From Escherichia coli (GTDB lineage: Bacteria; Pseudomonadota; Gammaproteobacteria; Enterobacterales; Enterobacteriaceae), in NCBI RefSeq assembly GCF_051903065.1, contig NZ_CP178439.1: 64,000 nucleotides of DNA; one strand, given 5' to 3'. Positions 7,614-23,701 of this stretch are shown here, piece by piece; positions within the stretch are counted from its first letter, which is position 1; every line of letters starts with the position of its first letter. Made by a program: the position numbers and the translations under genes. Under the pieces are notes generated by a model. It was not told the origin of the DNA. It made no database searches and was given only the letters and a program-made list of their open reading frames with translations.

Positions 7614-7701
7614 TTCGATATGGGCATTTACTTATGCTTAAAGCTATAGTATAAAAACAATGAGCTTAAATATCAGCTCCCAAATTTGAGTAACTTTGCT
7701 T

Positions 7702-8007: not shown

Positions 8008-8880
8008 ATGTCTAAAAATAAAGCTCGCAGTAAAGCCCTTCATCAAACCTTTAGTGAAATTATTCCAGAGATGGATAAGGCGCTAAACAAACAGCTCTTA
8101 GAAGTTCTGATGAAATATACAGAACGTGATAATGAACTGATTGTTATTTTGAATGAGGACGGCCCAAATATCATTGAACTTAAGTCTCTTAAGCCTGTGT
8201 CTTTGTTGGCCGAAAAGCTTTCTGCTTATTCAAGCTATTATCATGTGGATGTTGTGGAGCTCGTGGTCAAGAAAATTGATTTCGAAGGAGCTTATAAGCT
8301 TCTTAAAGCTTCCCCAGATGTACCACTTTTTAAAAGCTTAACTGAACTGGATAAATATCTTGTTGAGGAGTTTGAAAAATACGGATTAAATTCATTTCTT
8401 GACGTGGATAATCTGGATTACTCACTTGAAAAAGCCAGTGAACTCAAAAATGAGCAGTTAATAAATTGGGTTTCGGACATCATTTGCAAACGTGAAAAAT
8501 TAACTTTACGTAAGCGTTTTGATGTCGCAGTAAAGGCCCACTACGAAAATGTAGAAAAAATGTATGATACCATTCGTCCGTTAATGAAAAAACTGGGTTT
8601 CCCAGAAGATCTCATGACGCACACCTTTAGTGAGTTAAGCGTTTTTGAAACTAAAGGATGGGACCATGCAATAAAATCGAAAATTGAGACTCTCGCTAAG
8701 CGTGAAACTCAATATTTAGATGATGCGGCTAAAGCAGAGAATCGACGTCTTGTAACAGAGAAGTTGGAGAACTCTTTAGCGATTGCACCAACTAAACCAA
8801 CAAGAAATTGGTTACATATTGCCGGAATTGCCTGTTTGGTAGTCTGCACGTTCATGTATGTAACTAATAAATTTATTTAA
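8008..8880 (+). CDS. Hypothetical protein, C-terminal membrane anchor (ORFan array)
   Basis: 290-aa ORF; hydrophobic C-terminal segment IAGIACLVVCTFMYV; followed by a hairpin element. Confidence 0.55.
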   Translation: MSKNKARSKALHQTFSEIIPEMDKALNKQLLEVLMKYTERDNELIVILNEDGPNIIELKSLKPVSLLAEKLSAYSSYYHVDVVELVVKKIDFEGAYKLLKASPDVPLFKSLTELDKYLVEEFEKYGLNSFLDVDNLDYSLEKASELKNEQLINWVSDIICKREKLTLRKRFDVAVKAHYENVEKMYDTIRPLMKKLGFPEDLMTHTFSELSVFETKGWDHAIKSKIETLAKRETQYLDDAAKAENRRLVTEKLENSLAIAPTKPTRNWLHIAGIACLVVCTFMYVTNKFI

Positions 8881-8884
8881 TCCT

Positions 8885-8916
8885 GTTAAGGGGGAACCCT
8901 AACGGGGCTTCTCTTT
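8885..8916 (+). terminator. Structured GC-run intergenic element E1
   Basis: GTTAAGGGGG-aa-CCCTAAC-GGGGC then T-rich tract, between the stop at 8880 and the start at 8938. Confidence 0.4.
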
Positions 8917-8937
8917 GAACAAATCGAGGAGCGGAAA

Positions 8938-9315
8938 ATGTCATATCTTGAATATATCAATGAAGTAAAAGTGTCCGGGATAGTTATCAGTGCTGTGGAG
9001 AAAAAAATGACTGACCAGAGTATAGGTTTGTTAATAAAGCTCAAAAATAGGATGAAGACAGAAGTTGATGGTGAAATCACTGAGAGAGAATTTTCAGTTC
9101 AAATCAAGGTGTCGCCTGAAATGTATTCAACCTGTTTCACTGGTATAAATCAGGGTGATGAGTTGATGGTCTCCGGTTATATTGTTGTCGATACTATTAT
9201 GATTGAAGGGAGAGAACATCCTCTTGACTACATGAGAGTGGTAGCAACAAGTAAGTTGGCTCACATACCTAAACCTCTAAAAGGTTTTGGACAAAGTAGC
9301 TTTAATCAGATCTGA
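8938..9315 (+). CDS. Hypothetical protein
   Basis: 125-aa ORF, ATG start, same strand as neighbours, followed by a strong hairpin. Confidence 0.5.
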   Translation: MSYLEYINEVKVSGIVISAVEKKMTDQSIGLLIKLKNRMKTEVDGEITEREFSVQIKVSPEMYSTCFTGINQGDELMVSGYIVVDTIMIEGREHPLDYMRVVATSKLAHIPKPLKGFGQSSFNQI

Positions 9316-9322
9316 CATTAAA

Positions 9323-9366
9323 CCCACCCTAAAGGGGAGAAATCCCTTCATGGGATTTCTCCTTTT
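9323..9366 (+). terminator. Structured GC-run intergenic element E2 (rho-independent terminator-like)
   Basis: CCCACCC..GGGG, then an 11-bp stem GGAGAAATCCC / GGGATTTCTCC with loop TTCAT, then TTTT; the CTCC in the 3' arm is complementary to the downstream GGAG ribosome-binding site. Confidence 0.55.
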
Positions 9367-9375
9367 GGAGTCCCC

Positions 9376-10353
9376 ATGAAACAAAAATTTAGGGCTACTG
9401 CAATAAGTAGTAATCAACTTAGTTTTTTTTCTATACTCGATATAGATGAAGATGAAATAACGCAAATAGTTGATTCACCCAAAGAGCATTTAAATGATGC
9501 TTACACGTCCGGATTAAACTTTAAATCAGAAGAAAGTAACATTTCTGAGATAAATTATGATTCTGAAAGGCGTGAAAATCACCTTTATGAAAAATCCAAA
9601 TTACTTAAAAATCAGATTTTGCATACAATTAATTTTGCAACAGAAACAGATTATCTATATACGGTTGAAGAATATAACCCAGATTTGGGTGGTCTGGTAA
9701 TAGAATGGACCCCTGAGGATGTGTATGTTGTTTTTCTATCCGCTATGGAAGAGTCTTTGGAAATCATTAAAGAACTAGTGTTGAGGAGAAAGTTATTCTT
9801 CAAAGATGACAATGGTAATATCACAGTGAATCCACTTTTAGAAGCTGAAACACGGTGGTATATGTCAAAATCATTTGAATACACTTGTTTATCTCATGGA
9901 CTTGATGCATGTGAATTTAGAGCGGAATTAAAATCATGGCTCTATTATCATTCGCATCGTTCGATTAGTGAAAACACGAAATTAGCTGAATGCAGGAATG
10001 ATGATGAAATCATTTTGCATGATTGCAATGACGATATGGGCTGGGACATCTTCTTTGATCAGGATTATTTAATGTCAGAAAAAAAACTGGCTGTTAAATG
10101 GACTGACAGGGAAATTATGGATGTTTACATAAAAGCTTTTAAATCCTCATTAGAGTTGTTTGACGAGCTTGTTTCATGTGATCTGTTAACTAAACGAAAC
10201 GCTTTTGGCAAGTTAGAAATCAATCCAATATTCGAAAATCATTTTGAATGGATCATGTCTGAAGCTTTTGAAATAGTGGGAAATCATCTTGGTTATAATG
10301 TGCCTCAAATCAGGAAACTGATGGCAACTATTTGCCAAATGAATCTCAAATAA
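9376..10353 (+). CDS. Hypothetical protein
   Basis: 325-aa ORF, ATG start 10 nt after element E2. Confidence 0.55.
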   Translation: MKQKFRATAISSNQLSFFSILDIDEDEITQIVDSPKEHLNDAYTSGLNFKSEESNISEINYDSERRENHLYEKSKLLKNQILHTINFATETDYLYTVEEYNPDLGGLVIEWTPEDVYVVFLSAMEESLEIIKELVLRRKLFFKDDNGNITVNPLLEAETRWYMSKSFEYTCLSHGLDACEFRAELKSWLYYHSHRSISENTKLAECRNDDEIILHDCNDDMGWDIFFDQDYLMSEKKLAVKWTDREIMDVYIKAFKSSLELFDELVSCDLLTKRNAFGKLEINPIFENHFEWIMSEAFEIVGNHLGYNVPQIRKLMATICQMNLK

Positions 10354-10410
10354 AATGCCACTGGCAAACATCTGCCAGAGGGCGGTGTTTGCATTTTACC
10401 GGAGTTAAAA

Positions 10411-11469
10411 ATGTCTAATGCCGCTATGAAGTTAAATGAAACATCTTCTGATGCTTATGAAAAATTAGAAGCTCTTCTTTCCCCGGATGTTATAAAGTTA
10501 AAACATTATGTGGATAAAGGTGAGTATCTTTTAGTTCTAGCAAAGGACCTTTTTGGTATTCCAGAAATGGATCCAAAGATGGCTGTGCCTGTTTTCAAAA
10601 CTAAAACCTCGTATCGAGCTCCGCTGAACAAAGACTACATACCAAATCCCCGAATACTTGAACAAGTGGTTAAACTGCTTATCAGTCCGGATATAGATTT
10701 AAGTGTGTGTCTTAAAGGTGAGTCCGGTTCTGGCAAGACTGAAATGGTAATGTACATTAGCCACATGATGAATTGGCCGCTGACAATTAAGCAGATCAAC
10801 AGCAATATTCGAGTTGATGAGCTTGAAGGTGAGCGCAGTCTTAATGGTGGTAATACAGGTTTTGTACACAGCGATTTGGTAACGGGATTTCGTAATGGTC
10901 ACCTCATTCTTCTGGATGAAGTGGACAAAATCGATCCTGATACGGCAGCAAAACTTCACATGCCCATTGAACGTAAGCCCTGGTCACTCAGTGCTAATGG
11001 TGGTGAGGTTATAACTGCTAATGGCTACACGCGATTTATTGGTACTGCAAACACAAACATGAGTGGAGGCGCTCGCCGGTTCGTTTCTTCTCAACGTCAA
11101 GATGCAGCTTTTATAAAGCGGTTCTTGATAGTTGAAATGGAGAAGCCCGACAAAGTTGCTTTAACCAATGTGCTTACTAAACGATATAGCTCTTTGCCTT
11201 TTCAGGTCATTGAGAAGTTCGTAAGAGTAGCGATTGCAGTAAATGACTCTGGTACAGAAGACAGTGTGATGGATATTCGTCAATTAGTAGCTTGGGTTGG
11301 CACGTCGATGACGTTAAAAACCTTTAGTCTTCTTGACACTTTCAAAATAGCTTTTGCTTCTGCTTTACCTTTACATGTGGTCGATCTTGTTCTTCAAGCT
11401 ATAGATCTTTCTCTTGGCGAAGACAAGGATAAATCGCTGGAGTATTTCACAGCAAAAAAGTCGAGTTAG
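10411..11469 (+). CDS. AAA+ ATPase, MoxR/CbbQ/CobS-like
   Basis: Walker A GESGSGKT and Walker B HLILLDEVDK; 352 aa; a vWA-domain partner lies two genes downstream. Confidence 0.7.
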   Translation: MSNAAMKLNETSSDAYEKLEALLSPDVIKLKHYVDKGEYLLVLAKDLFGIPEMDPKMAVPVFKTKTSYRAPLNKDYIPNPRILEQVVKLLISPDIDLSVCLKGESGSGKTEMVMYISHMMNWPLTIKQINSNIRVDELEGERSLNGGNTGFVHSDLVTGFRNGHLILLDEVDKIDPDTAAKLHMPIERKPWSLSANGGEVITANGYTRFIGTANTNMSGGARRFVSSQRQDAAFIKRFLIVEMEKPDKVALTNVLTKRYSSLPFQVIEKFVRVAIAVNDSGTEDSVMDIRQLVAWVGTSMTLKTFSLLDTFKIAFASALPLHVVDLVLQAIDLSLGEDKDKSLEYFTAKKSS

Positions 11470-11780
11470 ATGGGATTTGTTATGAAACCTCTGATATTTG
11501 TATCTCAGAGTTATCCCATCTTGAATTTAGTGCGTTTTTAAGTACGGATGGTGCTGCTACCATTGCTATAGCAAAAAACGGAACTAATTTTACTGGACTT
11601 ATGCAACTGAATAACGACTATTCTTTATTGTTTTATCATGATGGTAAAATAAATATGGAAGGTCTGATTAAACAAATGGAATTAAAAGGTTATATGTATC
11701 AGGGAGCAATGGGCAATGATGATGTTGTTGCTGAGTTTCCCGGTATTCTTTTAATTTCACCAGAGTAGCTTTAATATCAA

Positions 11781-11827
11781 CCCTATCGGGAAATCTTTCC
11801 CGTTGGGGAGGGTTTCCCCTTTTTTTT
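11781..11827 (+). terminator. Structured GC-run intergenic element E3
   Basis: CGGGAAA-tc-TTTCCCG hairpin, GGGGA-GGGTT-TCCCC hairpin, T8 tract; GGGTTTC is complementary to the downstream GAAACCC next to the start codon. Confidence 0.5.
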
Positions 11828-11837
11828 GGAGAAACCC

Positions 11838-12965
11838 ATGACTTTAAATACTTCAATGCTTAACAAAGTATCTGCAAAACAAATCTCTGAGAATTTTGCA
11901 AAATCATATCCAGATTTACTGGAAGGTGCAGTTATAACAAAAATTGAAATAAGTGGCTGTCAAGGATCGCGTCGAACCGATAAAATCGATTTGTCTTATG
12001 ATGGAGATGATATTACGGATCAAAAAAGCGTATCTAAAAGCGAAGTACGCTGGATTGACATAAAAGCCCTTAGCTTCAAAAGTACGATTACCAGCAGAAT
12101 ATCAACTCTTTGCTCACGCTTGTGCATCCGCTATAGCAATATGTGGATTTTACCAGTATCCAGTATGGAAGAGTTTCTGGAAGGGGCCCAAGAGATTGAA
12201 CGAGAGTTTCAGGCAGGTATTCAAAACGTTGTAGACAATTATGAGATGCATATTGAGGCTGAAAAAAATAGAAGCCCAAGAATGTCTTCTTTGATTGATC
12301 AGTTGAAATTAACTAAAGATGATTTCATAAAATCCTTTAGATTTAATATTGCTCACTTTATTCCTTTTACGCCTATTAGCGTTGAAGGTGATGAAACCCA
12401 GGACTACTATCAGGAACAATTGATAACAGATCTGGCAGAAGAAGCAATGAAGGTTTATGAAAAAATTAGCAAAAATAACAATTTGCGCTCAAGTACTATT
12501 GACCGACTGAAGCAAATGCAAAATAAGATCATTAGCTTCATGTTTATACATAAAGAGGCGGCAGTACTTGCAGAAGCTATAAAACACATAATGAATAATT
12601 TACCTAAAGGTGCCATTTCTGAACCTCGCGACGTTGCGGTGTTACAGCAGTGGTTTTATTTCATGAGTGATGCTTCAATGTTAAAGCGTATTATTTCAGG
12701 AGAGCAAAAGGTTACTGACTGGTTGGAATCTATTACCAGATCATTTAATCAAAGCTCACAAACAGAACCGAACGCGCTACAGAACACAGGTATTGAAGCT
12801 ATTTTAGATTCAACAAATGTGTTCCAGGTTGAACCTGTCGTAGAGAACGATATAAATAACAGCACGTTTTCAAACACTGATCCTGTAGCTGAACCTGAGA
12901 AATCAGTTTCGCAACAGGAAGACAATGTTGAAAATGGTTTTGATATCGAGCTCAAAGGCTGGTAA
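11838..12965 (+). CDS. Hypothetical protein
   Basis: ORF in track from 11826 (TTG); ATG at 11838 with GGAGAAACCC upstream preferred; 375 aa. Confidence 0.55.
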   Translation: MTLNTSMLNKVSAKQISENFAKSYPDLLEGAVITKIEISGCQGSRRTDKIDLSYDGDDITDQKSVSKSEVRWIDIKALSFKSTITSRISTLCSRLCIRYSNMWILPVSSMEEFLEGAQEIEREFQAGIQNVVDNYEMHIEAEKNRSPRMSSLIDQLKLTKDDFIKSFRFNIAHFIPFTPISVEGDETQDYYQEQLITDLAEEAMKVYEKISKNNNLRSSTIDRLKQMQNKIISFMFIHKEAAVLAEAIKHIMNNLPKGAISEPRDVAVLQQWFYFMSDASMLKRIISGEQKVTDWLESITRSFNQSSQTEPNALQNTGIEAILDSTNVFQVEPVVENDINNSTFSNTDPVAEPEKSVSQQEDNVENGFDIELKGW

Positions 12966-12984
12966 CTGTTTGCTTTATTAAAAA

Positions 12985-13027
12985 CCCCAGATGGGTACTT
13001 CACCATCTGGGTGAGTACCCCTTTTTT
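12985..13027 (+). terminator. Structured GC-run intergenic element E4, interleaved dyads
   Basis: CCCAGATGG/CCATCTGGG and GGGTACT/AGTACCC dyads interleaved (pseudoknot-like or alternative hairpins), followed by TTTTTT. Confidence 0.5.
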
Positions 13028-13042
13028 ATAAAGAGGTATTCT

Positions 13043-15055
13043 ATGAAATTAGATCTTAAATCATCACCGCGCCATATTAAGCGTTTACAGAATATAGCAA
13101 AAGTCATTAGCGGCTTAGGCGATGTAAGAGTTGTAATAGACGACAATACCAAAGGACCGTATTTTGATCCTGTAAATAAAGTTTGTGTTTTACCAAACGG
13201 CGATTATAGCGATGATGACTTTGTCAGTCTGATTGAAGGTTTTACCTGTCATGAAGCTGGTCATGGTCGCTATACCGACAGCGAGGTTTACAGTGACGCC
13301 TTTAATAGTGTTCTCAAGTCATCTGAAGGGTTTACACGCTTCGATGACGGAATGAATGCAGAGTTTGAGAGCCTCGCTGAGAAACGTAAAGCTTATAGCA
13401 GGGCAAAACGTCTTACCGGGCTTATAAATCTGTTCGATGATGTACAGATGGAAGAGAAGGTTGGTAACGATTATCCGGATGCAAAGCGGCGGCTTGCAGC
13501 CACTTACGCACTGATGGTTAAAGCCGGAAGGATGACTCCTGATATATCTTCTCGTCCGGAAAATCCTGTCCTATTTATTGAGTGGTATCTGCTTAACTCA
13601 TTGCGAGTAAAAGTCCTTCAGCAGGCAGGTCACAAAGAAACACTCGATCCGTTTTTTGACTATGCCCAAAAGATACTTTCTCCAGTAATTTCTGATGTTG
13701 AGGAAATTTTTCATGATGCTCTTGGTTGTGAAAATACTCAGGGCTGTGAATCCCTTGCTCGTAAGACCCTGGCTCTTTTAGAGAGACTGCGGGATGAGGC
13801 AAGGGAACAACAGCAGCAGACAGAGCAGGAGGAGCAGGAGGCATATGATGAATCCGAGACCGAGACCGAGACCGATACCGAATCAGAAGATAAATCGCTT
13901 GAGTCGACTGATAGTCGTGAGGATGATTCTGAGGACGATAGTGAAGGTCAGGCAGATACTTCCGATAACTCTGATCTTGCTCAAGAGGGATGTTCTGAGC
14001 CTTCAGAACTTGCTGAAGATAACGAGGGAAATAATGAACCCACCGGTGGCAATCCCACAGGTGATAACATTATTGAAGACGATACTGATGCGATTAACCC
14101 TTCCGAGAGTGAATCAGATGAAGCCAGTTCGACTAACGTTGAAGATGAAAGTAACTTTTCATCGGCTCAATGGGAGATACTGGCAGATTTGTTGGATGCC
14201 TTTCTTGGCAGTGATGAGGATAGCGAAGATTATCACGATGCTTTGGCTAAAGAGATTGAAGGTATTGCATCAAAAGTATCCGATGACGTGAAAGCCGAAT
14301 TCGGTGCTTCTGAATGGGATATCCCTGATCTCCTTATCGATTTGAATGTTTACAATGAGGCTTTGTCTCTGAGTCATTCAATCGGTAGCGACTTGTCTGT
14401 TTTACAGCAGGTTAAAATGCGTGGCCGAAACAAAACTCATGAGCGTGGAATTACCTTCGATGGAAATCGATTAATTCTGTCACCAATGGGAGTTCGTGAT
14501 GTCTTCAGAGCTCAAAGCGAATCTAAAAATAGAGGGCATGTTGGCCTCGTATTAGTTCGTGATATTTCAGCGTCAATGGCTAATGATGAAAGATATATTC
14601 ATGCCATTAAGTCAGATCTTGCTTTATCGATGGCCGCTGAAAGTTTGTCAAAAATGCATGTCTCCAATATAGTCTTTCCCTTCAAGGAAAGTGAATTTGA
14701 GATTATCAAAACGTTTGATCAAAGCGTTGAGGAATCTCTATCGAAATTCACTCTTGGATGTAAGGGTTATTATACCCCTACGGGATCGGCTTTAATGGCA
14801 GCTGTTGATCTGTTACTTGACAGCCAATTCGATAGGAAAATAATTTTTCTTATAACTGATGGTTATCCGAATAAATCGGAATTTACTATCGGCGAAGTTA
14901 TGGAAAAGGCTAAATGTAATGGAATAGAAATCGTTGGTGTTGGTATTAAGACTGATGAAATAATTGGTTTTGAAACGGACACTTTCGTAACAGTTGATGA
15001 TACTTCTTTATTGTCTATTGAAGTCAGTAAGCTAGTTCATCAAATACTTTCTTAA
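13043..15055 (+). CDS. vWA-domain protein with long acidic linker (CobT/ViaA-like partner of the AAA+ ATPase)
   Basis: C-terminal vWA/MIDAS motifs (VRDISASM, TPTGSA, ITDGYPN); central Asp/Glu-rich low-complexity stretch (ETETETDTESEDKS and onward); 670 aa. Confidence 0.7.
   Translation: MKLDLKSSPRHIKRLQNIAKVISGLGDVRVVIDDNTKGPYFDPVNKVCVLPNGDYSDDDFVSLIEGFTCHEAGHGRYTDSEVYSDAFNSVLKSSEGFTRFDDGMNAEFESLAEKRKAYSRAKRLTGLINLFDDVQMEEKVGNDYPDAKRRLAATYALMVKAGRMTPDISSRPENPVLFIEWYLLNSLRVKVLQQAGHKETLDPFFDYAQKILSPVISDVEEIFHDALGCENTQGCESLARKTLALLERLRDEAREQQQQTEQEEQEAYDESETETETDTESEDKSLESTDSREDDSEDDSEGQADTSDNSDLAQEGCSEPSELAEDNEGNNEPTGGNPTGDNIIEDDTDAINPSESESDEASSTNVEDESNFSSAQWEILADLLDAFLGSDEDSEDYHDALAKEIEGIASKVSDDVKAEFGASEWDIPDLLIDLNVYNEALSLSHSIGSDLSVLQQVKMRGRNKTHERGITFDGNRLILSPMGVRDVFRAQSESKNRGHVGLVLVRDISASMANDERYIHAIKSDLALSMAAESLSKMHVSNIVFPFKESEFEIIKTFDQSVEESLSKFTLGCKGYYTPTGSALMAAVDLLLDSQFDRKIIFLITDGYPNKSEFTIGEVMEKAKCNGIEIVGVGIKTDEIIGFETDTFVTVDDTSLLSIEVSKLVHQILS
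14148..14158. repeat. AAAGTWACTTT palindromic motif copy 4
   Basis: AAAGTAACTTT inside the vWA gene acidic region (E-S-N-F). Confidence 0.6.
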
Positions 15056-15063
15056 TAAACTCT

Positions 15064-15099
15064 ACCCAATCGGGGCAAAAGGCCCCGGTGGGTCTTTTT
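15064..15099 (+). terminator. Intergenic element E5, rho-independent terminator
   Basis: ACCCAATCGGGGC-aaaag-GCCCCGGTGGGT nested hairpin followed by CTTTTT. Confidence 0.6.
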
Positions 15100-15126
15100 G
15101 CTCCATGAAGGAATAAGGAGCAAAAT

Positions 15127-15348
15127 ATGACTCAGATAAAAACTTACCGTGTAGAACATGAAAAAGTCGGTGCGATGCATAAAGTCCGTATTTTCGGACG
15201 TGTTGGTGAAGTTATAAGCAATGATAGCCCTCAGGAAAGAATCTTCCGCGAAGTCACTATAGCGGAGGGTAATAGCCAGCAGGCTGCGTTACTTGTAGAT
15301 AACTACATACAGCGTCTTGAGAATAATGGCTTCACGACTGAAGCATAA
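15127..15348 (+). CDS. Small hypothetical protein (73 aa)
   Basis: ATG start with AAGGAG upstream; flanked by hairpin elements E5 and E6. Confidence 0.5.
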   Translation: MTQIKTYRVEHEKVGAMHKVRIFGRVGEVISNDSPQERIFREVTIAEGNSQQAALLVDNYIQRLENNGFTTEA

Positions 15349-15354
15349 ATGTTG

Positions 15355-15377
15355 AGGGCCCCCGGGCCCTCTTTCTT
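15355..15377 (+). terminator. Intergenic element E6
   Basis: GAGGGCCC-CC-GGGCCCTC perfect hairpin followed by TTTCTT. Confidence 0.55.
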
Positions 15378-15461
15378 AAATTCTGCGTTGTGGGTTTCTC
15401 CCTGTCTTCTGCACCGCAGAAGGCATTGAGAAACTCACAATGCCAGATAAGAGAGATCATC

Positions 15462-16694: not shown

Positions 16695-16701
16695 CAACGA
16701 T

Positions 16702-16733
16702 AACTCCCCCGCTTTTTGCGGGGGGGGTTATCT
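16702..16733 (+). terminator. Intergenic element E7
   Basis: CCCCCGC-TTTTT-GCGGGGG hairpin immediately after the stop at 16694. Confidence 0.5.
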
Positions 16734-16773
16734 TATCAATATTATATTTTAAAATTGTATTGATAAGATAACC
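16726..16773. promoter_or_regulatory. 14-bp perfect inverted repeat flanking a 20-bp AT-rich spacer
   Basis: GGTTATCTTATCAA (16726-16739) and TTGATAAGATAACC (16760-16773) around TATTATATTTTAAAATTGTA; sits in a 270-bp gene-free interval. Confidence 0.4.
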
Positions 16774-16904
16774 GCTTTCCTTCGTGATAATTACCTGCCT
16801 TTAAGGTCTTTTCACGGCTGAGATGCTTGCTCAGTTAAATAAATGTGCGGTACTACTGGCTATGGTCGGTTGTATGACATGGTTATTCCATAAACTATTA
16901 AAAC

Positions 16905-16930
16905 CCATAACGGGAGTATTACCGTTATGG
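16905..16930. promoter_or_regulatory. 9-bp inverted repeat, candidate operator upstream of the gene at 16965
   Basis: CCATAACGG-gagtatta-CCGTTATGG, 35 bp upstream of the ATG. Confidence 0.35.
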
Positions 16931-16964
16931 TGATGCTCGTCGTTTTACATCGGAGAGCATTTTA

Positions 16965-17486
16965 ATGAATTTTCAAATTAACGAAGTTTTTAATAAATTT
17001 GCTGCTGTTATAAAATCGCGCATCGTCAATGAACCATCGTCATGCTATTTGCTGCATGATAATGAGATAGATATAACGATTTTGAAACATAGCATATTAG
17101 AAAATGACAGAAACCTGTTGTACGTAGTTCGTCCTTCAGGAACGTGTTTGTTGCGTTGTGACAAATATTTCTATCCGAAATATTATCTTCGTTGCCGTGG
17201 AGATTATAAGTCATTCATATATGTCCATCTTGATCTACATAGTGGTGAAGCTAAAGAAATCACATGGGAGCAAGCAGACGATATGCTGTCTAGTCCAGGA
17301 AAACCCCCATTAAAAGGGAATCTTGGACGATTTGAGTATATAAAAGTTGTGGTTGAGGACCTTCGTATTCGAGGTTACGCTGATTATCTTCCTGCGTATA
17401 ATCTTGATGACCTTCGCCGTTTTGCCTTACAGGACGACCGCCCATCCCTTGTCAGATACATTGACAATGTCATGGCAACGGTCTGA
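16965..17486 (+). CDS. Hypothetical protein
   Basis: 173-aa ORF, ATG start. Confidence 0.5.
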   Translation: MNFQINEVFNKFAAVIKSRIVNEPSSCYLLHDNEIDITILKHSILENDRNLLYVVRPSGTCLLRCDKYFYPKYYLRCRGDYKSFIYVHLDLHSGEAKEITWEQADDMLSSPGKPPLKGNLGRFEYIKVVVEDLRIRGYADYLPAYNLDDLRRFALQDDRPSLVRYIDNVMATV

Positions 17487-17512
17487 TTGATTGCTAATTG
17501 ATTTACATATTT

Positions 17513-17539
17513 TCCCTGATGGCCAACCTGCATCAGGGA
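17513..17539. other. Intergenic hairpin
   Basis: TCCCTGATG-gccaacctg-CATCAGGGA dyad between the genes ending 17486 and starting 17565; no downstream T-tract. Confidence 0.35.
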
Positions 17540-17564
17540 GGCCTCAATAACGAATGGAGGCTGT

Positions 17565-18443
17565 ATGAAGTTAGCTACGGACCTGGTAAAAGCTATTTTG
17601 ATTAGAAATGGCGTTGAACCAGTAAATATAAGCGAATCATCTAAGTTATCTTTGAAACAACCACTGACAGAACTTAAATTCAGTTTATATTTGCGAACTG
17701 AGCATTTATCTCACTTCCTACCCGGTTATGTTTATTCTATAAAAGAATGTCCACTGTCATATGACATCGGGATCGAAATTCAGAAAATCTTCGAAAGTTT
17801 ACATTTGTTAAACGAAGAATTTGAATCCCTCGGTTTTGTTTCTGTATGGATAGAAATGCATCAAAGCATTTTTGAACAAAGTCGGTTTAAGAAAAGTAAC
17901 TTTACTTTTCGGGAGGAAGAGGTCGAGCTTGCTAAAGGGCTTGTTTGTTCTCACAATTCACAAATAAGTAATGCGGCTTATTTCTGGCTTCAGCACTTTG
18001 AGGAGTTTATGATTTATGTTCGTAATAAGCTTATCGACCTCTTTCGAGAGGCCTATGACCTGATCCTTGGAATGCAGCAAGTATTTTTCATTCGGGAAAA
18101 GGAAGAGCTGTTGAAAACTATAAGTTATGGCGATGAGCTGTATGAGGTGAAATTCATGGCGGCTGAGCTTTACTCTATCGAACAGAACTTAAAGTGTTCT
18201 GAATCGATAAGTACAAAATCTCAAGCTTCGGCATATATTAACCGCATCCGTGAGTTTGTGCGTTCGGGGTGGAGGCAGGGCTATATAGTCTGCCATCATA
18301 AGCGAAGTAATCAAATTTCATCATTGTCATTACCGATGTACTTGAAAGATACGTCAGGCCGAAGTGCTCGAAAGCGAGTAAAACGTCTTATATCTTCTAC
18401 AGTTTGTGGTAGAAATAAAGATTTAGGTCTTACAGATTTTTAA
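17565..18443 (+). CDS. Hypothetical protein
   Basis: 292-aa ORF; contains one AAAGTAACTTT motif copy. Confidence 0.55.
   Translation: MKLATDLVKAILIRNGVEPVNISESSKLSLKQPLTELKFSLYLRTEHLSHFLPGYVYSIKECPLSYDIGIEIQKIFESLHLLNEEFESLGFVSVWIEMHQSIFEQSRFKKSNFTFREEEVELAKGLVCSHNSQISNAAYFWLQHFEEFMIYVRNKLIDLFREAYDLILGMQQVFFIREKEELLKTISYGDELYEVKFMAAELYSIEQNLKCSESISTKSQASAYINRIREFVRSGWRQGYIVCHHKRSNQISSLSLPMYLKDTSGRSARKRVKRLISSTVCGRNKDLGLTDF
17893..17903. repeat. AAAGTWACTTT palindromic motif copy 5
   Basis: AAAGTAACTTT inside the ORFan gene at 17565-18443 (K-S-N-F). Confidence 0.6.
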
Positions 18444-18453
18444 TTAAATTATA

Positions 18454-18497
18454 CCCATGTGGGGATCACACCCCATATGGGAGTGATCCCTTTTTTT
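18454..18497 (+). terminator. Structured GC-run intergenic element E8, interleaved dyads
   Basis: CATGTGGGG/CCCCATATG and GGGATCAC/GTGATCCC dyads interleaved, then T7; a third GGATCAC copy overlaps the downstream ribosome-binding site. Confidence 0.5.
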
Positions 18498-18513
18498 ATT
18501 GAGAGAGGATCAC

Positions 18514-19269
18514 ATGAAAATTATCGAAAAAATCATTAATGCCTTTTTGGTTGTTCAACATAAAAAAATACAGGTTAAAAACATTACATTTTTAGACAAT
18601 GGGCAGGGCATGTTCTCTGGTATGTCTTTTGATGCTGATGTTTCACTGGAGTTTATGTATGAATCAGCAAAAGCATATAGTTCTTGTTTCTGTGATATTC
18701 CCTTTCCAGGTTTTGAAGATGCAAATCTGGAGGAAATTACGAAATTTCAATTAGATGCTCTGAAGCAAAGAAAGAATCATTCTTTCTTTGTTAACCATTT
18801 GAGGTTTCCTATAGTTTTAAGGGAAGGGTGCAAAATCGAAAGAGGAGAAGTCTATTCAATTTCGAATTGCACTTATAATAAAGAAAGATTGCAGTATCTT
18901 TTTTCTCAGGATATTTACGGTAAGTTGTATAATTCCTTAGAGAAAGAATTAAGCTCGTTTTTCTCATTTATCAATGTTGAGGTGCACGAGTTGTTAAAAG
19001 ATGCTGTATGCTTTGCATTAAAAATCCTGAATAAGATATCTTTGGATACACCTGAAAGACTTATTAAAGCTTTTAATTATCGTGACTGGTATTGTAGTTA
19101 CGATGTTGAGCTTTTTAGGAAAGGCTTACCTGGTCATATTCTGGAAGAGCTCATTGCTCCAGATATCTTACTTTCAGACCTTAACGGTTGTAGAAAAATA
19201 CTTAGAAATGCAAAACGATTTCTAAATGGACATACACAAACCAATTGTGTTTATATTAAATATGAATGA
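18514..19269 (+). CDS. Hypothetical protein
   Basis: Track ORF from TTG 18499; ATG 18514 with GAGAGAGGA upstream preferred; about 251 aa. Confidence 0.55.
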   Translation: MKIIEKIINAFLVVQHKKIQVKNITFLDNGQGMFSGMSFDADVSLEFMYESAKAYSSCFCDIPFPGFEDANLEEITKFQLDALKQRKNHSFFVNHLRFPIVLREGCKIERGEVYSISNCTYNKERLQYLFSQDIYGKLYNSLEKELSSFFSFINVEVHELLKDAVCFALKILNKISLDTPERLIKAFNYRDWYCSYDVELFRKGLPGHILEELIAPDILLSDLNGCRKILRNAKRFLNGHTQTNCVYIKYE

Positions 19270-19462
19270 TGGTTGGGGCCTGTTGATACCTCACACTCAG
19301 CTAAGTTGATGTCTGACAAAGAAATTAATAACCGAAGTGACTTGAAGAATTTTTCAAAGGTCTTTTTCAAAGAGTGTTTAAGTTCTGGTAAGTCGGAATA
19401 TGAAAACCATCTTAGTGAAAAAGAACATGCGCTTCGCTATAATTATTAATTAAAATTATTTT

Positions 19463-19510
19463 CTCCCATAGGGATTTCTCCCTATGGGAGAAATCCCTCT
19501 ATTAAGAGGG
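19463..19510 (+). terminator. Structured GC-run intergenic element E9
   Basis: TCCCATAGGGA and GGGATTTCTCCC/GGGAGAAATCCC dyads (same arms as E2); CCCTCT-atta-AGAGGG can sequester the downstream ribosome-binding site. Confidence 0.5.
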
Positions 19511-19517
19511 TATTGAA

Positions 19518-20438
19518 ATGAATGCTATACAAAAGTTAGTTGAATCTATTCTTGTTAAAATGGGTTTTGTTGGCGCTGTAGTGGAAAATATATATTTGGA
19601 TTCAAAACCATTTCGGCATATTCGATTTGTGGCTGATATTCCAGTAATATCTTTTCTACCTCATTTGGTGAAATATCTTAAGGGTGCAGACCATCTTTAC
19701 AGTGGTAACGATGATTTGCATCCTCTTTTCATTTATTTTTCCGAAGCGGCTACATTAAAAGCAGGTCCTGTAAATCTCGCGAACTTTCGTTTTGAAGTTT
19801 CTATAGCTTCAACTCATTTACGACTGGTCTCAGAGCAGCCTGATTTGCTTTTCAAAGGATTTAACCGGGATAATCTAGAATACGTTTATTACCGCTCAGA
19901 TTTGGCCTCTAAGGATCTTATACTAGGCCTTGTTGAACACGGTTCTCCTTTCATAAAACATCTACATGGACTTATACAAAAGCGAATTTTAAACGAGTTC
20001 TCTCTGATTTTTTCTGTTCTTGAAAAGATTTTAGAAAGCGCGAAGCCACAAATTCTTGCTTGCTTCCATAGTGTTGATTATGAAATGAACGTAAAAATAA
20101 TAGCCGAAGCTATACCTGAAACTGTATCTAATCAGATAGTCACATCTGATTATATAGTTAATTCTATATCAGATGCGGACAAGTTTATAAATCATGTTCG
20201 TCGCTATTTAGCAGGCAGGGTAATGAAGAGGCGGATATACGCTGAATTAGATGTTTGTGAAGAAACATCAAGTATTTCACTAGTGAACTTAGGATGCTTT
20301 ACGTCTCCTCTGCTCGTTACGGAATATCAAATGTTTAAGCCACACTCTTCAGGGTTATATCGAAAAGCTATAAACAACTCCTTAAAACAGTTCAAACCAG
20401 AAATGCATGTACCTTCTGAAGAACTCTTTTATAATTAA
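19518..20438 (+). CDS. Hypothetical protein
   Basis: 306-aa ORF, ATG start. Confidence 0.55.
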   Translation: MNAIQKLVESILVKMGFVGAVVENIYLDSKPFRHIRFVADIPVISFLPHLVKYLKGADHLYSGNDDLHPLFIYFSEAATLKAGPVNLANFRFEVSIASTHLRLVSEQPDLLFKGFNRDNLEYVYYRSDLASKDLILGLVEHGSPFIKHLHGLIQKRILNEFSLIFSVLEKILESAKPQILACFHSVDYEMNVKIIAEAIPETVSNQIVTSDYIVNSISDADKFINHVRRYLAGRVMKRRIYAELDVCEETSSISLVNLGCFTSPLLVTEYQMFKPHSSGLYRKAINNSLKQFKPEMHVPSEELFYN

Positions 20439-20442
20439 TCTA

Positions 20443-20486
20443 ACCCATCCGGGAACCTGCTTCCCGGTGGGAAGCACTTCCTTTTT
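20443..20486 (+). terminator. Structured GC-run intergenic element E10
   Basis: CCGGGAA/TTCCCGG and GGAAG-cac-TTCC dyads followed by TTTTT; GAGGTAGTGTAAATG ribosome-binding context downstream. Confidence 0.5.
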
Positions 20487-20504
20487 AGTCATGAGGTAGT
20501 GTAA

Positions 20505-21368
20505 ATGTTTAAAGAATCTGACCACGTGGAATTTGTTAGTGCCTTTCTTTATCAAAATTTAGGCCTTAATGTTTCCGCTGACGATATAACCGTTCAATTA
20601 TCTGATACTTCGTTCGACAAAGTAACCTTTGATTACGATGTAGATATCGATAATTTAAATTGTATGTTGGATCTCTACATATCTGAGCTAATAAAGCACA
20701 ACGCATCTTACTCCGATTCTATTCTTTTGAAACAAAAAATAATTTATTTTCTTGGAGTATTTAAGAATTTCGGATTTTTTACGTTTGATATTCGCGGATA
20801 TAGTAATACTTTAAGCCCAGTTAAAGTTATTGATATTGTTTCAATGATTATTAATGACTGTGAAGAGTTATCTAAAGCTAATTCTTCTACTGATGCTATA
20901 AGAAATCTTTATCTCGATAAAATGAAGGTGGATGGGAAAGTGTTAGTTGCGAAATTTGCACTTAAACAGTTTTTTCATTCCGACTTTGGTGACTTTATCT
21001 CATTTGTCGAGAAAAGAATTACAGATTGTCTTAATGAAACTTTAAGGATTATCAAAGCTGTTGAACATGGCTTTGTACGTGTAGGGCAGCATAAGATTAA
21101 TCGCCGTATTAATGATGACTTAAAGTTATGCATTGATTTCAATACTGATGATTATCCGGCAAATATGCCAGATATATATATTAAGTTTAACGATACATTT
21201 GATGGGAACGGGGCGTTATATTGTGACAATGATGCCCTCATATCCCTCTATACCGATGTTGCTTCAATTATCAATGTGCCGGTGATGATGGAAGTAAGAT
21301 TGATCAATAAAAGAGGGCGTGTTGTCTGTGATTCTTCGCATTCAACTTACGTATCTCGGCTTTGTTGA
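20505..21368 (+). pseudogene. Hypothetical protein, paralog A; 3' end truncated by IS903
   Basis: Clear paralog of the gene at 22681-23637 (KVDGKVLVAKFALKQFF vs QVDGQVMIARFALQQFW). The ORF runs into the IS903 left end; removing the IS restores a C-terminus similar to the paralog. Confidence 0.6.
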
Positions 21369-22414
21369 ATAAATCGAACTTTTGCTGAGTTGAAGGATCA
21401 GATCACGTATCTTCCCGACAACGCAGACCGTTCCGTGGCAAAGCAAAAGTTCAAAATCACCAACTGGCCCACCTACAATAAAGCCCTCATCAACCGTGGC
21501 TCCATAACTTTCTGGCTGGATGATGAAGCTATTCAGGCCTGGTATGAGTCAGCAACACCTTCTTCACGAGGCAGACCTCAGCGCTATTCTGACCTTGCCA
21601 TCACGACTGTGCTGGTCATTAAACGCGTATTCAGGCTGACCCTGCGCGCTGCGCAGGGCTTTATTGATTCCATTTTTTCTCTGATGAACGTTCCGCTACG
21701 CTGCCCGGATTACAGCTGTGTCAGCAGGCGGGCAAAGTCGGTTAATGTCAGTTTCAAAACGCCCACCCGGGGTGAAATCGCACACCTGGTAATTGATTCC
21801 ACCGGGCTGAAGGTCTTCGGTGAAGGCGAGTGGAAAGTCAAAAAGCATGGCCAGGAACGCCGCCGTATCTGGCGTAAGCTGCATCTCGCCGTTGACAGTA
21901 AAACACATGAAATCATCTGCGCTGACCTGTCGCTGAACAACGTTACGGACTCAGAGGCCTTCCCCGGGTTAATCCGGCAAACCCACCGGAAAATCAGGTC
22001 AGCCGCCGCCGATGGCGCTTACGATACCCGGCTATGTCACGATGAACTGCGGCGTAAGAAAATCAGCGCGCTTATCCCTCCCCGAAAAGGTGCGGGTTAC
22101 TGGCCCGGTGAATATGCAGACCGTAACCGTGCAGTGGCTAATCAGCGAATGACCGGGAGTAATGCGCGGTGGAAATGGACAACAGATTACAACCGTCGCT
22201 CGATAGCGGAAACGGCGATGTACCGGGTAAAACAGCTGTTCGGGGGTTCACTGACACTGCGTGACTACGATGGTCAGGTTGCAGAGGCTATGGCCCTGGT
22301 ACGAGCGCTGAACAAAATGACGAAAGCAGGTATGCCTGAAAGCGTGCGTATTGCCTGAAAACACAACCCGCTACGGGGGAGACTTACCCGAAATCTGATT
22401 TATTCAACAAAGCC
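21358..22414 (+). mobile_element. IS903 (IS5 family), complete, 1057 bp
   Basis: 18-bp terminal inverted repeats GGCTTTGTTGAATAAATC at both ends; 9-bp direct target duplication ACGTATCTC at 21349-21357 and 22415-22423. Confidence 0.9.
21435..22358 (+). CDS. IS903 transposase
   Basis: 307-aa ORF from GTG 21435 (track extends upstream to TTG 21390); spans nearly the whole element between the inverted repeats; matches my recollection of the IS903 transposase. Confidence 0.85.
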   Translation: MAKQKFKITNWPTYNKALINRGSITFWLDDEAIQAWYESATPSSRGRPQRYSDLAITTVLVIKRVFRLTLRAAQGFIDSIFSLMNVPLRCPDYSCVSRRAKSVNVSFKTPTRGEIAHLVIDSTGLKVFGEGEWKVKKHGQERRRIWRKLHLAVDSKTHEIICADLSLNNVTDSEAFPGLIRQTHRKIRSAAADGAYDTRLCHDELRRKKISALIPPRKGAGYWPGEYADRNRAVANQRMTGSNARWKWTTDYNRRSIAETAMYRVKQLFGGSLTLRDYDGQVAEAMALVRALNKMTKAGMPESVRIA

Positions 22415-22529
22415 ACGTATCTCTCGAAAGTAATGACCGATACAGAGTAACTGATCGCACATTACTAATAACTGAAGCTTTTGACGATTTTCGTAACGCG
22501 TCTCAATGATCCTTTTGCTTCAGTCCAAA

Positions 22530-22540
22530 AAAGTAACTTT
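22530..22540. repeat. AAAGTWACTTT palindromic motif copy 6
   Basis: AAAGTAACTTT, intergenic; embedded between CTTCAGTCCAA and TTGGCTGAAG inverted repeats. Confidence 0.6.
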
Positions 22541-22620
22541 GGTTGGCTGAAGACACTTGTCTATGACAATGTAAAATCTGTCGCTGGCATCTTCTTTTAG
22601 CTTAACCAAATTTTTATCTA

Positions 22621-22662
22621 ACCCAGTGGGGAAGTCGCTTCCCTTCTGGGGCACTTCCTCTC
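22621..22662 (+). terminator. Structured GC-run intergenic element E11
   Basis: CCCAGTGGGGAAG-tcg-CTTCCC..GGGG runs ahead of the GAGGTAGTGTATATG start context, as upstream of paralog A. Confidence 0.4.
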
Positions 22663-22680
22663 AAATTCGAGGTAGTGTAT

Positions 22681-23637
22681 ATGACACATTCATCTGATGA
22701 TAAAAACTATGTCCGAGCAGTTCTGAGTTATCTTGGCATAGATTTTGATGAGGCGGATATAGTATTAAGTGTTTGCCATTGTCAAAGTGACGAGCTTTCT
22801 TTTACCTGTAATATCAAAGCTATTGAACTCAAGAATGCTGTTGATTTATATGTCGATAGTATCTCTGAGAATGAAATAGAAGCTTTAAACAGAGAATCTT
22901 TAAAATCGCGACTCTGTTACTTTCTTGAGGTGTTTGACGCAGTCTCTGGTCAGTACCTTGAAATTTCAGGAAAACACTTTGCAACTAGTCGTTTTGAATA
23001 TGATGATGTTTGTAGTGAAGTTCTTAGCATGTCTAATGATGTTTCTCAGTCGAAAGGTTATGACCGGGATGAATATAACAGACTGATGCAGGTTGATGGT
23101 CAGGTTATGATTGCCCGTTTTGCTTTGCAACAGTTCTGGGATACTCATTTTATTGGACTAATAACATTTGTATCTGAGTCTATAACATCGAGCCTCTATA
23201 AAGCTTATGAAACTTTTAGTGATATTAGTTTGGCTTGCTATAAACTGAGTGAATATTCTTATTCACGCTCTATCAACAGTGAATTGACCCTTAATATTTC
23301 ACTTAAAGAAAATGACTTCTGTGAGGACCTATCTGATTGCTATATGGAAGATGAGGCTTTACCTTCTGGTAGGGTAATTTCTCGACGCAACAATGACTCC
23401 ATAATAAGTATTTATGAGAGCTATGCTGCGGCTTCTTATATTCCGATGATTGCATCTTTGGAAGTCGTTGATGAATACGGCGAAGTGGTTACTGACCTCT
23501 GCCATACCGTTTATGTTTCAGAGTTAACCGGTGGGCGGATTAAAATCCACGACCGTAATGACTTAGTATCTGAAGTTTTCGATAACCTAAGAAATTTAAA
23601 TCTTGCAGTTGGAGATTCAGTTTCACAAGCTGCTTGA
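22681..23637 (+). CDS. Hypothetical protein, paralog B (intact)
   Basis: ATG 22681 with GAGGT upstream; 318 aa; C-terminal half aligns with paralog A. Confidence 0.6.
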   Translation: MTHSSDDKNYVRAVLSYLGIDFDEADIVLSVCHCQSDELSFTCNIKAIELKNAVDLYVDSISENEIEALNRESLKSRLCYFLEVFDAVSGQYLEISGKHFATSRFEYDDVCSEVLSMSNDVSQSKGYDRDEYNRLMQVDGQVMIARFALQQFWDTHFIGLITFVSESITSSLYKAYETFSDISLACYKLSEYSYSRSINSELTLNISLKENDFCEDLSDCYMEDEALPSGRVISRRNNDSIISIYESYAAASYIPMIASLEVVDEYGEVVTDLCHTVYVSELTGGRIKIHDRNDLVSEVFDNLRNLNLAVGDSVSQAA

Positions 23638-23676: not shown

Positions 23677-23701
23677 GGCACGGTTTCCGTGCCTTTTTTT
23701 T
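23677..23701 (+). terminator. Rho-independent terminator
   Basis: GGCACGG-ttt-CCGTGCC followed by T8. Confidence 0.7.

Follow-up and report, generated by a model that had tools for sequence, protein, structure and literature searches.

A traN-distal gene block of an IncHI2 plasmid: a putative transfer-associated DNA-processing and defence-evasion module followed by an IncHI-specific paralog array

What does a conjugative plasmid gain from a long run of hypothetical genes that all point the same way and begin where its transfer genes end? Here, we take up this question for a block at positions 8008 to 23637 of a 64,000-nucleotide (nt) stretch of Escherichia coli DNA (the window; contig NZ_CP178439.1, assembly GCF_051903065.1), which comparison with pEC21Z137-237K (NZ_CP101234.1) identifies as the backbone of an IncHI2 conjugative resistance plasmid. 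A sequence-only reading had seen in the block an array of ORFan genes that fits a plasmid leading region or establishment island, and the likeliest place in the window for an undescribed system with anti-defence, establishment or DNA-processing functions. The locus divides into two units: the helicase gene trhI with the genes p01-p08 (unit 1, 5829-17486), which are assigned by homology and gene order to a module that always follows traN in MOBH/F-type elements (IncHI1, IncHI1B, IncC, SXT and others), and the genes p09-p13 (unit 2, 17565-23637), an array of paralogs. We put the chance at about even that unit 1 is a transfer-associated DNA-processing and defence-evasion module and unit 2 an accessory family, the functional half of that statement being drawn from homologues and gene neighbourhood. 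The block is a variant of a recently described system, not a new kind.

The features of unit 1 and of the stretch that leads into it are as follows (aa, amino acids; ORF, open reading frame).

4777-5649, minus strand: conserved ORF of 290 aa between trhN and trhI, called 'lipoprotein' in pHCM1 and part of the conserved synteny
5829-7613, plus strand: trhI, UvrD-type helicase (RefSeq annotation, UvrD-helicase profile matches), which travels with the module
7878-7910, plus strand: promoter-like block before p01 (TTGCGT, 18 nt, TATAAA), holding the motif AATGCCAGATA
8008-8880, plus strand: p01, 290 aa, with predicted coiled regions and a C-terminal hydrophobic tail anchor (from the translation)
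8938-9315, plus strand: p02, 125 aa, divergent SSB-like OB-fold protein without an acidic C-terminal tail (phmmer and profiles)
9376-10353, plus strand: p03, 325 aa, with an internal duplication of ~100 aa and of no known family (from the translation)
10411-11469, plus strand: p04, MoxR/CobS-type AAA+ ATPase (Pfam AAA_5, 9e-28), homologue of IncC Vcrx089 and SXT s067
11601-11768, plus strand: small ORF annotated by RefSeq, 55 aa (89 aa in IncHI1), orthologue 52% identical
11838-12965, plus strand: p05, DUF3150 protein with an N-terminal beta domain and helical bundles, always found together with the AAA and vWA genes
13043-15055, plus strand: p06, CobT-like, with a long acidic linker and a C-terminal vWA domain (Pfam VWA, 7.8e-7)
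15127-15348, plus strand: small conserved ORF of 73 aa between the vWA and primase genes, orthologues 66% (IncHI1) and 30% (IncHI1B) identical
15462-16694, plus strand: p07, DnaG-type primase-like, with DUF7146 (Zn-ribbon-like) and Toprim_3 (Pfam 3.9e-19 and 6.6e-12)
16965-17486, plus strand: p08, 173 aa, of no recognised family, with orthologues (70% and 28% identical) as far out as IncHI1B

The ORF listing shows 15 successive plus-strand ORFs of 125-670 codons between 8008 and 23637, just as the earlier reading had counted them, together with two further small annotated ORFs (11601-11768 and 15127-15348); trhU, trhN and trhI precede the block, so that its position after the tra genes also stands. 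The term ORFan fared less well: the array is real, yet the ORF at 21390-22358 is the transposase of IS903B and hence no ORFan, and the block, found in >1000 sequenced plasmids and in 271 complete E. coli genomes, is no database orphan.

Gene order is the evidence that carries the assignment of unit 1. The succession minus-strand ORF, trhI, p01, p02, p03, AAA, DUF3150, vWA, 73-aa ORF, Toprim and p08 is kept in the IncHI1 plasmid pHCM1, in IncHI1B and in three more IncHI-like lineages, with 25-52% identity to the Klebsiella IncHI1B/FIB lineage. The genes for AAA_5, DUF3150 and VWA proteins occur together in all eight lineages compared, and those for Toprim and UvrD proteins in six, with trhI homologues beside the AAA/DUF3150 genes in 6 lineages. 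Distant contigs with DUF3150 genes carry, in this order, TraN, a minus-strand ORF, a UvrD helicase, SSB, AAA_5, a small ORF, DUF3150, vWA/CobT_C, a small ORF and DUF7146-Toprim; one of them has TraN, SSB, AAA_5, DUF3150 and vWA with RecT and a nuclease alongside, and the order of the helicase, Toprim, AAA, DUF3150 and vWA genes is different in an Aeromonas MOBH plasmid. In IncC the order runs from traN to AAA, a hypothetical gene, ssb, bet, exo, DUF3150 and VWA, and in SXT it is exo, s067 (CobS), s088, s068, s069, s070 (CobT?), radC, s092 and s072 (primase?). The IncHI2 block itself presents a co-directional AAA_5, DUF3150 and vWA cluster past trhN, within an element that has a MobH relaxase, and genes of single-stranded DNA metabolism. 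Three proteins make up the invariant core of the module (MoxR/CobS-type AAA ATPase, DUF3150 protein, CobT-like vWA protein); SSB, UvrD helicase and Toprim primase usually accompany them, and it is this trio, not the Vcrx089-090 pair of IncC, that forms the conserved unit.

The members of the trio have intact motifs. In p04, Walker A (GESGSGKT) and Walker B (LILLDE) are both present, and in p06 the metal-ion site of the vWA domain (MIDAS, DxSxS) reads DISAS; p06 also has PHROG CobT and NCBIfam cobaltochelatase matches and homologues in all eight lineages. As the PDB matches of p04 are midasin, NorQ, CobS and CbbQ, it is a MoxR-type ATPase whose partner is a CobT-like vWA protein with an acidic linker. 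Its homology to the IncC ATPase Vcrx089 is clear both by tblastn (27% identity over 73% of the query, E 2e-19) and by phmmer (7e-25). The DUF3150 protein p05 was modelled with a pLDDT of 82, and its structure matches were generic helical bundles only. An HMM search gave 747 representative DUF3150 relatives; word-indexed searches with p13 and DUF3150 returned IncHI-type relatives only, the distant DUF3150 relatives all coming from the full HMM search. A search for phage relatives of DUF3150 gave no confirmed locus in viral contigs, and a literature search for DUF3150 or DUF7146 gave nothing useful.

Around this core, several proteins point to DNA metabolism. TrhI retains Walker A (GSGKS) and DEVQD. 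In p07, the EGIE and DKD motifs are intact, PHROG DNA primase matches at 1.4e-27 and SXT s072 is the counterpart, so that the protein has the make-up of a DnaG-type primase (a Zn-ribbon-like N-domain and a Toprim domain with its Glu and DxD) and is predicted to have that activity. The small protein p02 is SSB-like, with predicted binding to single-stranded DNA: phmmer links it to a Pfam-SSB protein at the syntenic position in the distant relative L010 (E 5.8e-8; L numbers denote the lineages compared), and a profile built from IncHI sequences alone has a single PDB match, an SSB OB domain (E 0.014), the value falling to 8e-7 when true SSBs are added. For p01 no Pfam, NCBIfam or PADLOC match was found; its orthologues are 60% identical in IncHI1 and 25% in IncHI1B. 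The protein p03 may occupy the place of the gene found ahead of AAA_5 in distant relatives (hhalign probability 55% against the L010/L012 family), and it showed no similarity to Vcrx090. An ORF of 72-89 aa stands in place of 15127-15348 in L012 and L015-L017, and the minus-strand ORF at 4777-5649, whose orthologues are 77% (IncHI1) and 42% (IncHI1B) identical, has positional counterparts in L012, L015, L016 and L017.

The sequence-only reading had recognised the AAA, vWA and primase proteins, which Pfam finds as AAA_5, VWA and DUF7146 with Toprim_3, and had thought the remaining genes free of assignable motifs; DUF3150 is a Pfam family too, and p02 is SSB-like. Beyond these four assignments (AAA_5, DUF3150, VWA, DUF7146 with Toprim_3) the Pfam scan of 23 proteins gave nothing in the block, and NCBIfam and PHROGs contribute only weak CobS/CobT-like and DNA-primase labels. 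PADLOC, run over the block proteins, reported no defence system and merely generic ATPase/helicase similarity, on which ground we rejected the identification of the block as a defence system. Nor is the system quite 'undescribed', as it had been called, given homologues in SXT (s067, s068, s070, s072) and IncC (vcrx089/094/095).

How might such a block be expressed? The promoter-like block at 7878-7910 is near-invariant in six IncHI lineages in an alignment in which the remainder of the 394-nt spacer has diverged, and is a putative promoter. Downstream of it, the following RNA-like elements were mapped.

8881-22674, plus strand: 13 intercistronic spacers, most of them 55-80 nt, each with a first hairpin (H1) and then a second (H2)
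15382-15447, plus strand: 66-nt hairpin just before the ribosome-binding site of the primase gene, almost invariant
16704-16726, plus strand: strong GC-rich terminator-like hairpin after p07, conserved in 5 lineages
23677-23693, plus strand: classical intrinsic terminator, GGCACGG-TTT-CCGTGCC then T8, which closes the array

The intercistronic elements are the least expected feature of the block. H1 is a GC-rich hairpin, typically CCC..GGGG-loop-CCCC..GGG, and the 3' arm of H2 carries the Shine-Dalgarno (SD) sequence. The claim that a structured element delimits each gene is upheld both by the number of terminator-like hairpins in the block (29, vs 12.1 +/- 3.4 in shuffles) and by the folding energy of the 70 nt upstream of block genes (-28.5 kcal/mol, vs -12.2 for 70 genes elsewhere in the plasmid; p = 3e-8). 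The two-hairpin layout recurs in all six IncHI lineages despite their differing sequences, and also in IncC and two distant lineages whose proteins are just 20-30% identical; outside the window the layout was seen in L007, L008, L010, L012 and L014-L017. When single spacers were aligned and folded (MAFFT/RNAalifold), H1 was recovered with a few compensatory pairs and H2 aligned poorly because the sequences have diverged, and the case for H2 therefore lies in folds of each sequence and in the shuffle test. A second partner for the 5' arm of H2 is the 5' arm plus loop of H1, to which it is likewise complementary (mean z -2.3 vs shuffles, with 67% at p <= 0.05 in 40 spacer instances), so that H1 hides a mimic of the SD region; this alternative H2/H1 pairing often precedes a U-run. 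SD-mimic, anti-SD and SD may thus form a three-part switch. In IncC, a structure that sequesters the ribosome-binding site before vcrx089 has been reported (Roy et al. 2020, PMC7498323). Between strict translational coupling, attenuation and a switch triggered by entry into a new cell, we could not decide.

The hairpin at 15382-15447 is unique in the window, and the sequence of its outer stem is invariant in six lineages in which the flanking proteins are only ~45% identical; its 3' end and the promoter-like block (7890-7900) have the motif AATGCCAGATA in common. Rfam gave no credible match for this hairpin or for the intercistronic ones. The hairpin at 16704-16726 is probably the end of the first transcription unit, and the AT-rich palindrome at 16726-16773 has no conserved counterpart in other lineages. 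Direct repeats akin to the rpt repeats of IncC were sought inside the block, and none of note was found. In the IncC lineage L014 itself, a sequence of ~90 nt stands before the AAA gene and again before the DUF3150 gene, with part of it before a third. Roy et al. 2020 described rpt repeats that serve Bet/Exo repair, and these copies probably correspond to them; they lie at the following L014 positions.

10749-10970: repeat site
15604-15805: repeat site
19359-19625: repeat site

Unit 2 differs from unit 1 in its distribution and pace of change, and consists of these features.

17565-18443, plus strand: p09, paralog subfamily A
18514-19449, plus strand: p10, subfamily B, with a nonsense change TGG>TGA at 19267-19269
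19518-20438, plus strand: p11, subfamily B
20505-22509, plus strand: p12, subfamily C, interrupted by IS903B, which leaves a 5' part (20505-21357) and a 3' remnant (22415-22509)
21358-22414, plus strand: IS903B, 1057 bp, with inverted repeats GGCTTTGTTGAATAAATCG and transposase at 21390-22358
22681-23637, plus strand: p13, subfamily C, 318 aa

That these genes are distant tandem paralogs, as had been proposed, is confirmed by direct matches (p12/p13, 27% identity, E 1e-35; p10/p11, E 1e-4) and by profile comparison of the subfamilies (A-B 97%, B-C 66% probability), in which the alignments are co-linear and nearly full-length. Their sequence-level relatives are confined to IncHI-type plasmids (28 clusters), where the number of copies is 0 in IncHI1B (L008), 2 in L017, 4 in L015 and 5 each in L016, IncHI1 and IncHI2. 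The two copies of L017 are one subfamily A and one subfamily C gene, a form that suggests stepwise duplication. The arrays of the other lineages lie as follows.

L015, 15538-19535: array of four copies
L016, 15586-20514: array of five copies
L017, 15636-17417: array of two copies

Between IncHI1 and IncHI2 the paralogs are 48-64% identical, as against 76-87% for TrhI, p02, the AAA ATPase, the DUF3150 protein and the primase, and 56-70% for p01, p03, the vWA protein and p08. The AF2 model of p13 is confident and compact, and its fold found no match among solved structures. In AFDB50, full-length fold relatives of p13 (TM about 0.6) occur in Dickeya, Photorhabdus, Pectobacterium, Pasteurellaceae and others, on chromosomes or other elements; some are labelled 'NgrC' and all are uncharacterised. 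The best-supported reading of p09-p13 is an IncHI-specific, fast-evolving accessory family, presumably a set of host-interaction proteins of the conflict type.

In the present plasmid the array has been damaged twice. The TGA in p10, which shortens the protein from 311 to 251 aa, is shared with 100%-identical plasmids and is not found in pE94-1, where p12 is also intact (312 aa). IS903B, an element of the IS5 family, is flanked by a 9-bp target duplication, ACGTATCTC, at 21349-21357 and 22415-22423, and the copy annotated in pE94-1 is 98.7% identical. In pE94-1 IS903B sits in the vWA gene instead of p12, and other plasmids have IS1B, ISKpn8 or ISVsa5 within the block.

Where the block lies relative to the origin of transfer (oriT) bears on whether it could enter a recipient first. 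In pEC21Z137-237K the Tra1 region (trhG, trhH, mobI, MobH relaxase, traD) is at 155-174 kb, with mobI and the MobH relaxase gene at 163.5-165.5 kb and a 758-bp gap before mobI at 163.5-164.25 kb; since MobI genes abut oriT in R27 and SXT (PMC10838148), oriT is placed there. The block, at 39.2-53.8 kb of the 237-kb circle, is ~110 kb from oriT either way and therefore is not a leading region, contrary to the placement first proposed for it; it falls outside the span that Samuel et al. 2024 give for such regions, roughly 30 ORFs counted from oriT in the direction leading away from the relaxase. Beside Tra1/oriT, at 174-200 kb of NZ_CP101234.1, is a run of small ORFs with Hok, DUF3085, DUF957, HNH nucleases, a PAPS-reductase-domain protein and a DNA methyltransferase, which is a better candidate for the leading region of IncHI2 than the block.

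What, then, does unit 1 do? Transposon sequencing (TnSeq) of IncC plasmid pVCR94 defined an operon, hde (host defence evasion), of vcrx089-093, in which vcrx089 (AAA_5 with CbbQ_C) together with vcrx090 guards against type I restriction and is complemented from the recipient, not the donor, while ssb, bet and exo repair CRISPR-Cas breaks; reverse transcription of hde mRNA from a vcrx094 primer indicated co-transcription (PMC7498323). In pKAZ3, deletion of vcrx089-90 raises restriction by EcoKI and EcoBI 424-906-fold (Dimitriu et al. 2024, PMC11602122), and vcrx089_090 is a two-gene model in AntiDefenseFinder. In SXT, the operon that begins with s089 bears the strongest peak of the transfer activator SetCD (Poulin-Laprade et al. 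2015, PMC4344509). The part of the sequence-only reading that spoke of anti-defence, establishment or DNA processing is plausible because of the homology to the hde ATPase and the constant company of SSB, helicase and primase genes (with RecT and exonuclease in relatives).

Starting from what was observed directly, namely plasmid identity, homology, synteny and RNA structure potential, we favour the following account. Unit 1 is the IncHI version of the traN-distal accessory module, its extras being a UvrD helicase, a Zn-ribbon/Toprim primase, an SSB-like protein that lacks the tail, and four proteins that belong to no known family. It would be expressed with or just after conjugative transfer, aiding the survival and establishment of the incoming DNA. 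The SSB-like protein, primase and helicase would process the transferred single strand and turn it into duplex DNA, and the ATPase/vWA/DUF3150 trio would act as an ATP-driven remodeller that blunts restriction, a role proposed from experiments on the IncC homologue of the ATPase, Vcrx089 (with Vcrx090). Unit 2, which is IncHI-specific and varies in copy number, would be an accessory set of conflict-type proteins. Transcription would probably run as one or two long units from the promoter-like block at 7878-7907, each cistron being gated by a conserved hairpin pair that masks its ribosome-binding site. Timing, anti-restriction role and paralog role are the parts that we infer.

Several observations weigh against this account. 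A block ~110 kb from oriT would enter late; the validated hde operon of IncC itself lies on the relaxase side, with ~31 kb between it and the start of the relaxase gene, so that distance from oriT is no argument against a recipient role. Among the relatives, the IncC TnSeq flagged vcrx089-093 only, not the DUF3150 or vWA genes (PMC7498323), and deleting s067, s068 or s070 in SXT lowered transfer by no more than 10-fold when matings were done in the laboratory (Wozniak et al. 2009, PMC2791158). No counterpart of Vcrx090 emerged when a profile of nine Vcrx090 sequences was compared with six-lineage profiles of p01, p03, p08, the small ORFs and the paralogs (hhalign probability <1% for every unknown block protein); neither RecT/Bet nor YqaJ/lambda exonuclease families were among the Pfam matches of the 23 proteins scanned, phmmer found no link from the block to the IncC bet or exo genes, and on p04 Pfam lists only AAA_5 and a weak AAA at E <= 0.1, with no CbbQ_C. 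The IncHI block falls outside the two-gene definition of vcrx089_090, having the ATPase homologue and lacking Vcrx090 and CbbQ_C. The folds of the DUF3150 protein and p13 yielded no functional hint, the probability of SD pairing is merely modestly above background (0.65 vs 0.52, p = 0.02), and natural plasmids, including the present one, tolerate IS insertions and a nonsense mutation in the block.

Five other explanations, each weaker than the favoured one, were weighed alongside it. The primase, helicase, SSB-like and Tus-like proteins could be a replisome accessory for a very large, low-copy replicon, with the AAA/vWA pair as loader or chaperone; the Tus-like gene, 2.6 kb past the block, keeps its position in all IncHI lineages, p04 has weak clamp-loader/RFC profile matches, and the motifs of primase and helicase are intact. 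We think vegetative replication rather unlikely, given that the module is tied to traN and not to the replicon, occurs in SXT/R391, which integrate and need no plasmid replisome, adjoins bet/exo in IncC, and tolerates natural IS insertions in the vWA and AAA region, and that the IncC ATPase homologue has an anti-restriction phenotype complemented in the recipient. That last result, together with the small cost of the SXT deletions (10-fold or less) and the ~110 kb between the block and the oriT/relaxase genes, also makes it unlikely that the block serves the donor side of transfer through unwinding by TrhI, priming of the replacement strand and remodelling of the relaxosome. For such a donor role speak the RefSeq name of TrhI (conjugal transfer helicase), the adjacency of trhU and trhN in the same direction, and the SXT counterpart operon, driven by the transfer activator SetCD (PMC4344509); in Rts1, deletion of bet or exo lowers conjugation ~70-fold. 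The labels CobS and CobT would suggest a cobalt chelatase or another metabolic function, which is hardly credible: the weak profile similarity to CobS and cobaltochelatase subunits amounts to NCBIfam scores of 34.4 bits against a cut-off of 558.6 (CobS) and 33.5 against 779.5 (chelatase subunit), the Pfam scan of 23 proteins held no CobN-like or other metabolic family, and the partners are always DNA-metabolism genes on mobile elements. Scores so far under the curated cut-offs, with this gene context, led us to reject a cobaltochelatase identity.

It is quite improbable that the paralog array, and perhaps more of the block, is largely decaying cargo without current function. The nonsense codon in p10, the splitting of p12 by IS903B and a copy number that falls to zero would fit decay; in IncHI1, IncHI2, L015 and L016 the orthologues are still full-length, with intact frames and 48-64% identity, the AF2 model is compact and of good confidence, and the intercistronic architecture is conserved around the paralogs. 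A leading-region anti-defence island, first into the recipient and transcribed from single-stranded promoters, would account for the co-directional genes, the SSB-like gene and the structured intergenic elements, and is very improbable with mobI, relaxase and oriT ~110 kb off on a 237-kb circle and a better candidate beside oriT in the same plasmid. Frpo-type single-strand promoters were not detected by Rfam (no dedicated Frpo model was used), and the hairpins, short and intercistronic, measure 15-35 nt and lie in mRNA-like spacers with ribosome-binding sites, unlike the ~300-nt Frpo/ssi elements. A bolder joint extension of the favoured account, which we consider doubtful, would make the trio a universal, ATP-driven counter-defence machine of all MOBH conjugative elements, served by lineage-specific adaptors (Vcrx090 in IncC; p01, p03 and p08 here), the array, with an NgrC-like fold and 0-5 copies, a set of diversifying inhibitors or decoys aimed at different host immune systems, and the RNA elements an entry switch of an undescribed kind, under which the whole operon goes untranslated in an established host and is translated in a burst once the plasmid reaches a new cell.

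The surroundings of the block are those of an IncHI2 backbone. The E. coli plasmid pEC21Z137-237K matches positions 1-21357 and 22415-54706 at 100% or 99.996% identity, and there are two differences: the 1057-bp insertion at 21358-22414 and a 2.1-kb insertion at 54707-56834, which codes for IstA-like (390 aa) and IstB-like (266 aa) proteins and is therefore an IS21-family element. The G+C content of the block (36-42%) is below that of the tra genes and the remaining window. On its 3' side, the RefSeq annotation of pEC21Z137-237K gives a Tus-like gene, a tyrosine recombinase, hha and a tellurite cluster; the flanking genes placed in the window are as follows.

381-1541: trhU, upstream of the block (RefSeq annotation of pEC21Z137-237K)
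1560-4748: trhN, upstream of the block (same annotation)
26222-27202: Tus-like protein gene (Pfam Ter, 6.5e-19), 2.6 kb past the block and syntenic in all IncHI lineages
28419-29603, minus strand: tyrosine recombinase gene, after the Tus-like gene and followed by hha

Among the carriers of multidrug resistance in Salmonella, E. coli, Enterobacter and Klebsiella, the IncHI2 and IncHI1 plasmids hold a major place, and published mcr-1 and mcr-9 plasmids belong to this type; ~9 kb of their 'hypothetical' backbone is here tied to the one experimentally supported defence-evasion operon of the same plasmid superfamily. The points that arise are the part of the trio in restriction evasion, a copy-variable paralog family with an unmatched fold, and an RNA architecture common to IncHI, IncC and distant relatives. 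In practice, the block should not be treated as a leading region.

How does the block compare with systems already described? Like the F, IncI and IncP leading regions (ssb, psiB, ardA; Sog and TraC primases), it has a plasmid SSB-type protein and a primase, plausibly for the transferred strand, and a possible anti-restriction role; unlike them, it is not near oriT, has no PsiB, ArdA, ArdB or ArdC, and its primase is of the DUF7146/Toprim_3 type. With the MoxR AAA+/vWA pairs (CobS-CobT, NorQ-NorD, CbbQ-CbbO, midasin) it shares an AAA_5 protein with Walker motifs and an acidic-linker vWA partner with MIDAS, and it differs in having no metal-chelatase or enzyme-maturation client nearby, DUF3150 as a constant third partner and a context of conjugative DNA metabolism. 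The SXT/R391 core (s089-ssb-bet-exo-s067-s088-s068-s069-s070-radC-s092-s072-s073) is closer, with the same order of CobS-like ATPase, s068, CobT-like protein and primase-like protein in a region between traN and traF; s068 would be the DUF3150 gene, and the SXT annotators matched genes, s068 among them, to Salmonella Typhi proteins, naming an S. Typhi plasmid for s067. Unlike IncHI, SXT carries Bet/Exo and RadC, and it lacks both a UvrD helicase in the block and a paralog array; its operon is activated by SetCD. From the hde region of IncC, IncHI differs in being without Vcrx090, Bet and Exo and without a Pfam-reported CbbQ_C in p04, and in adding the UvrD helicase, the Toprim primase, p01, p03, p08 and the five-gene paralog array. 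The two are alike in position after traN in a MOBH/F-type element, in a homologous AAA_5 ATPase with DUF3150 and vWA genes in the same direction, in an SSB-type gene, in a hairpin that masks the ribosome-binding site and in lying away from oriT.

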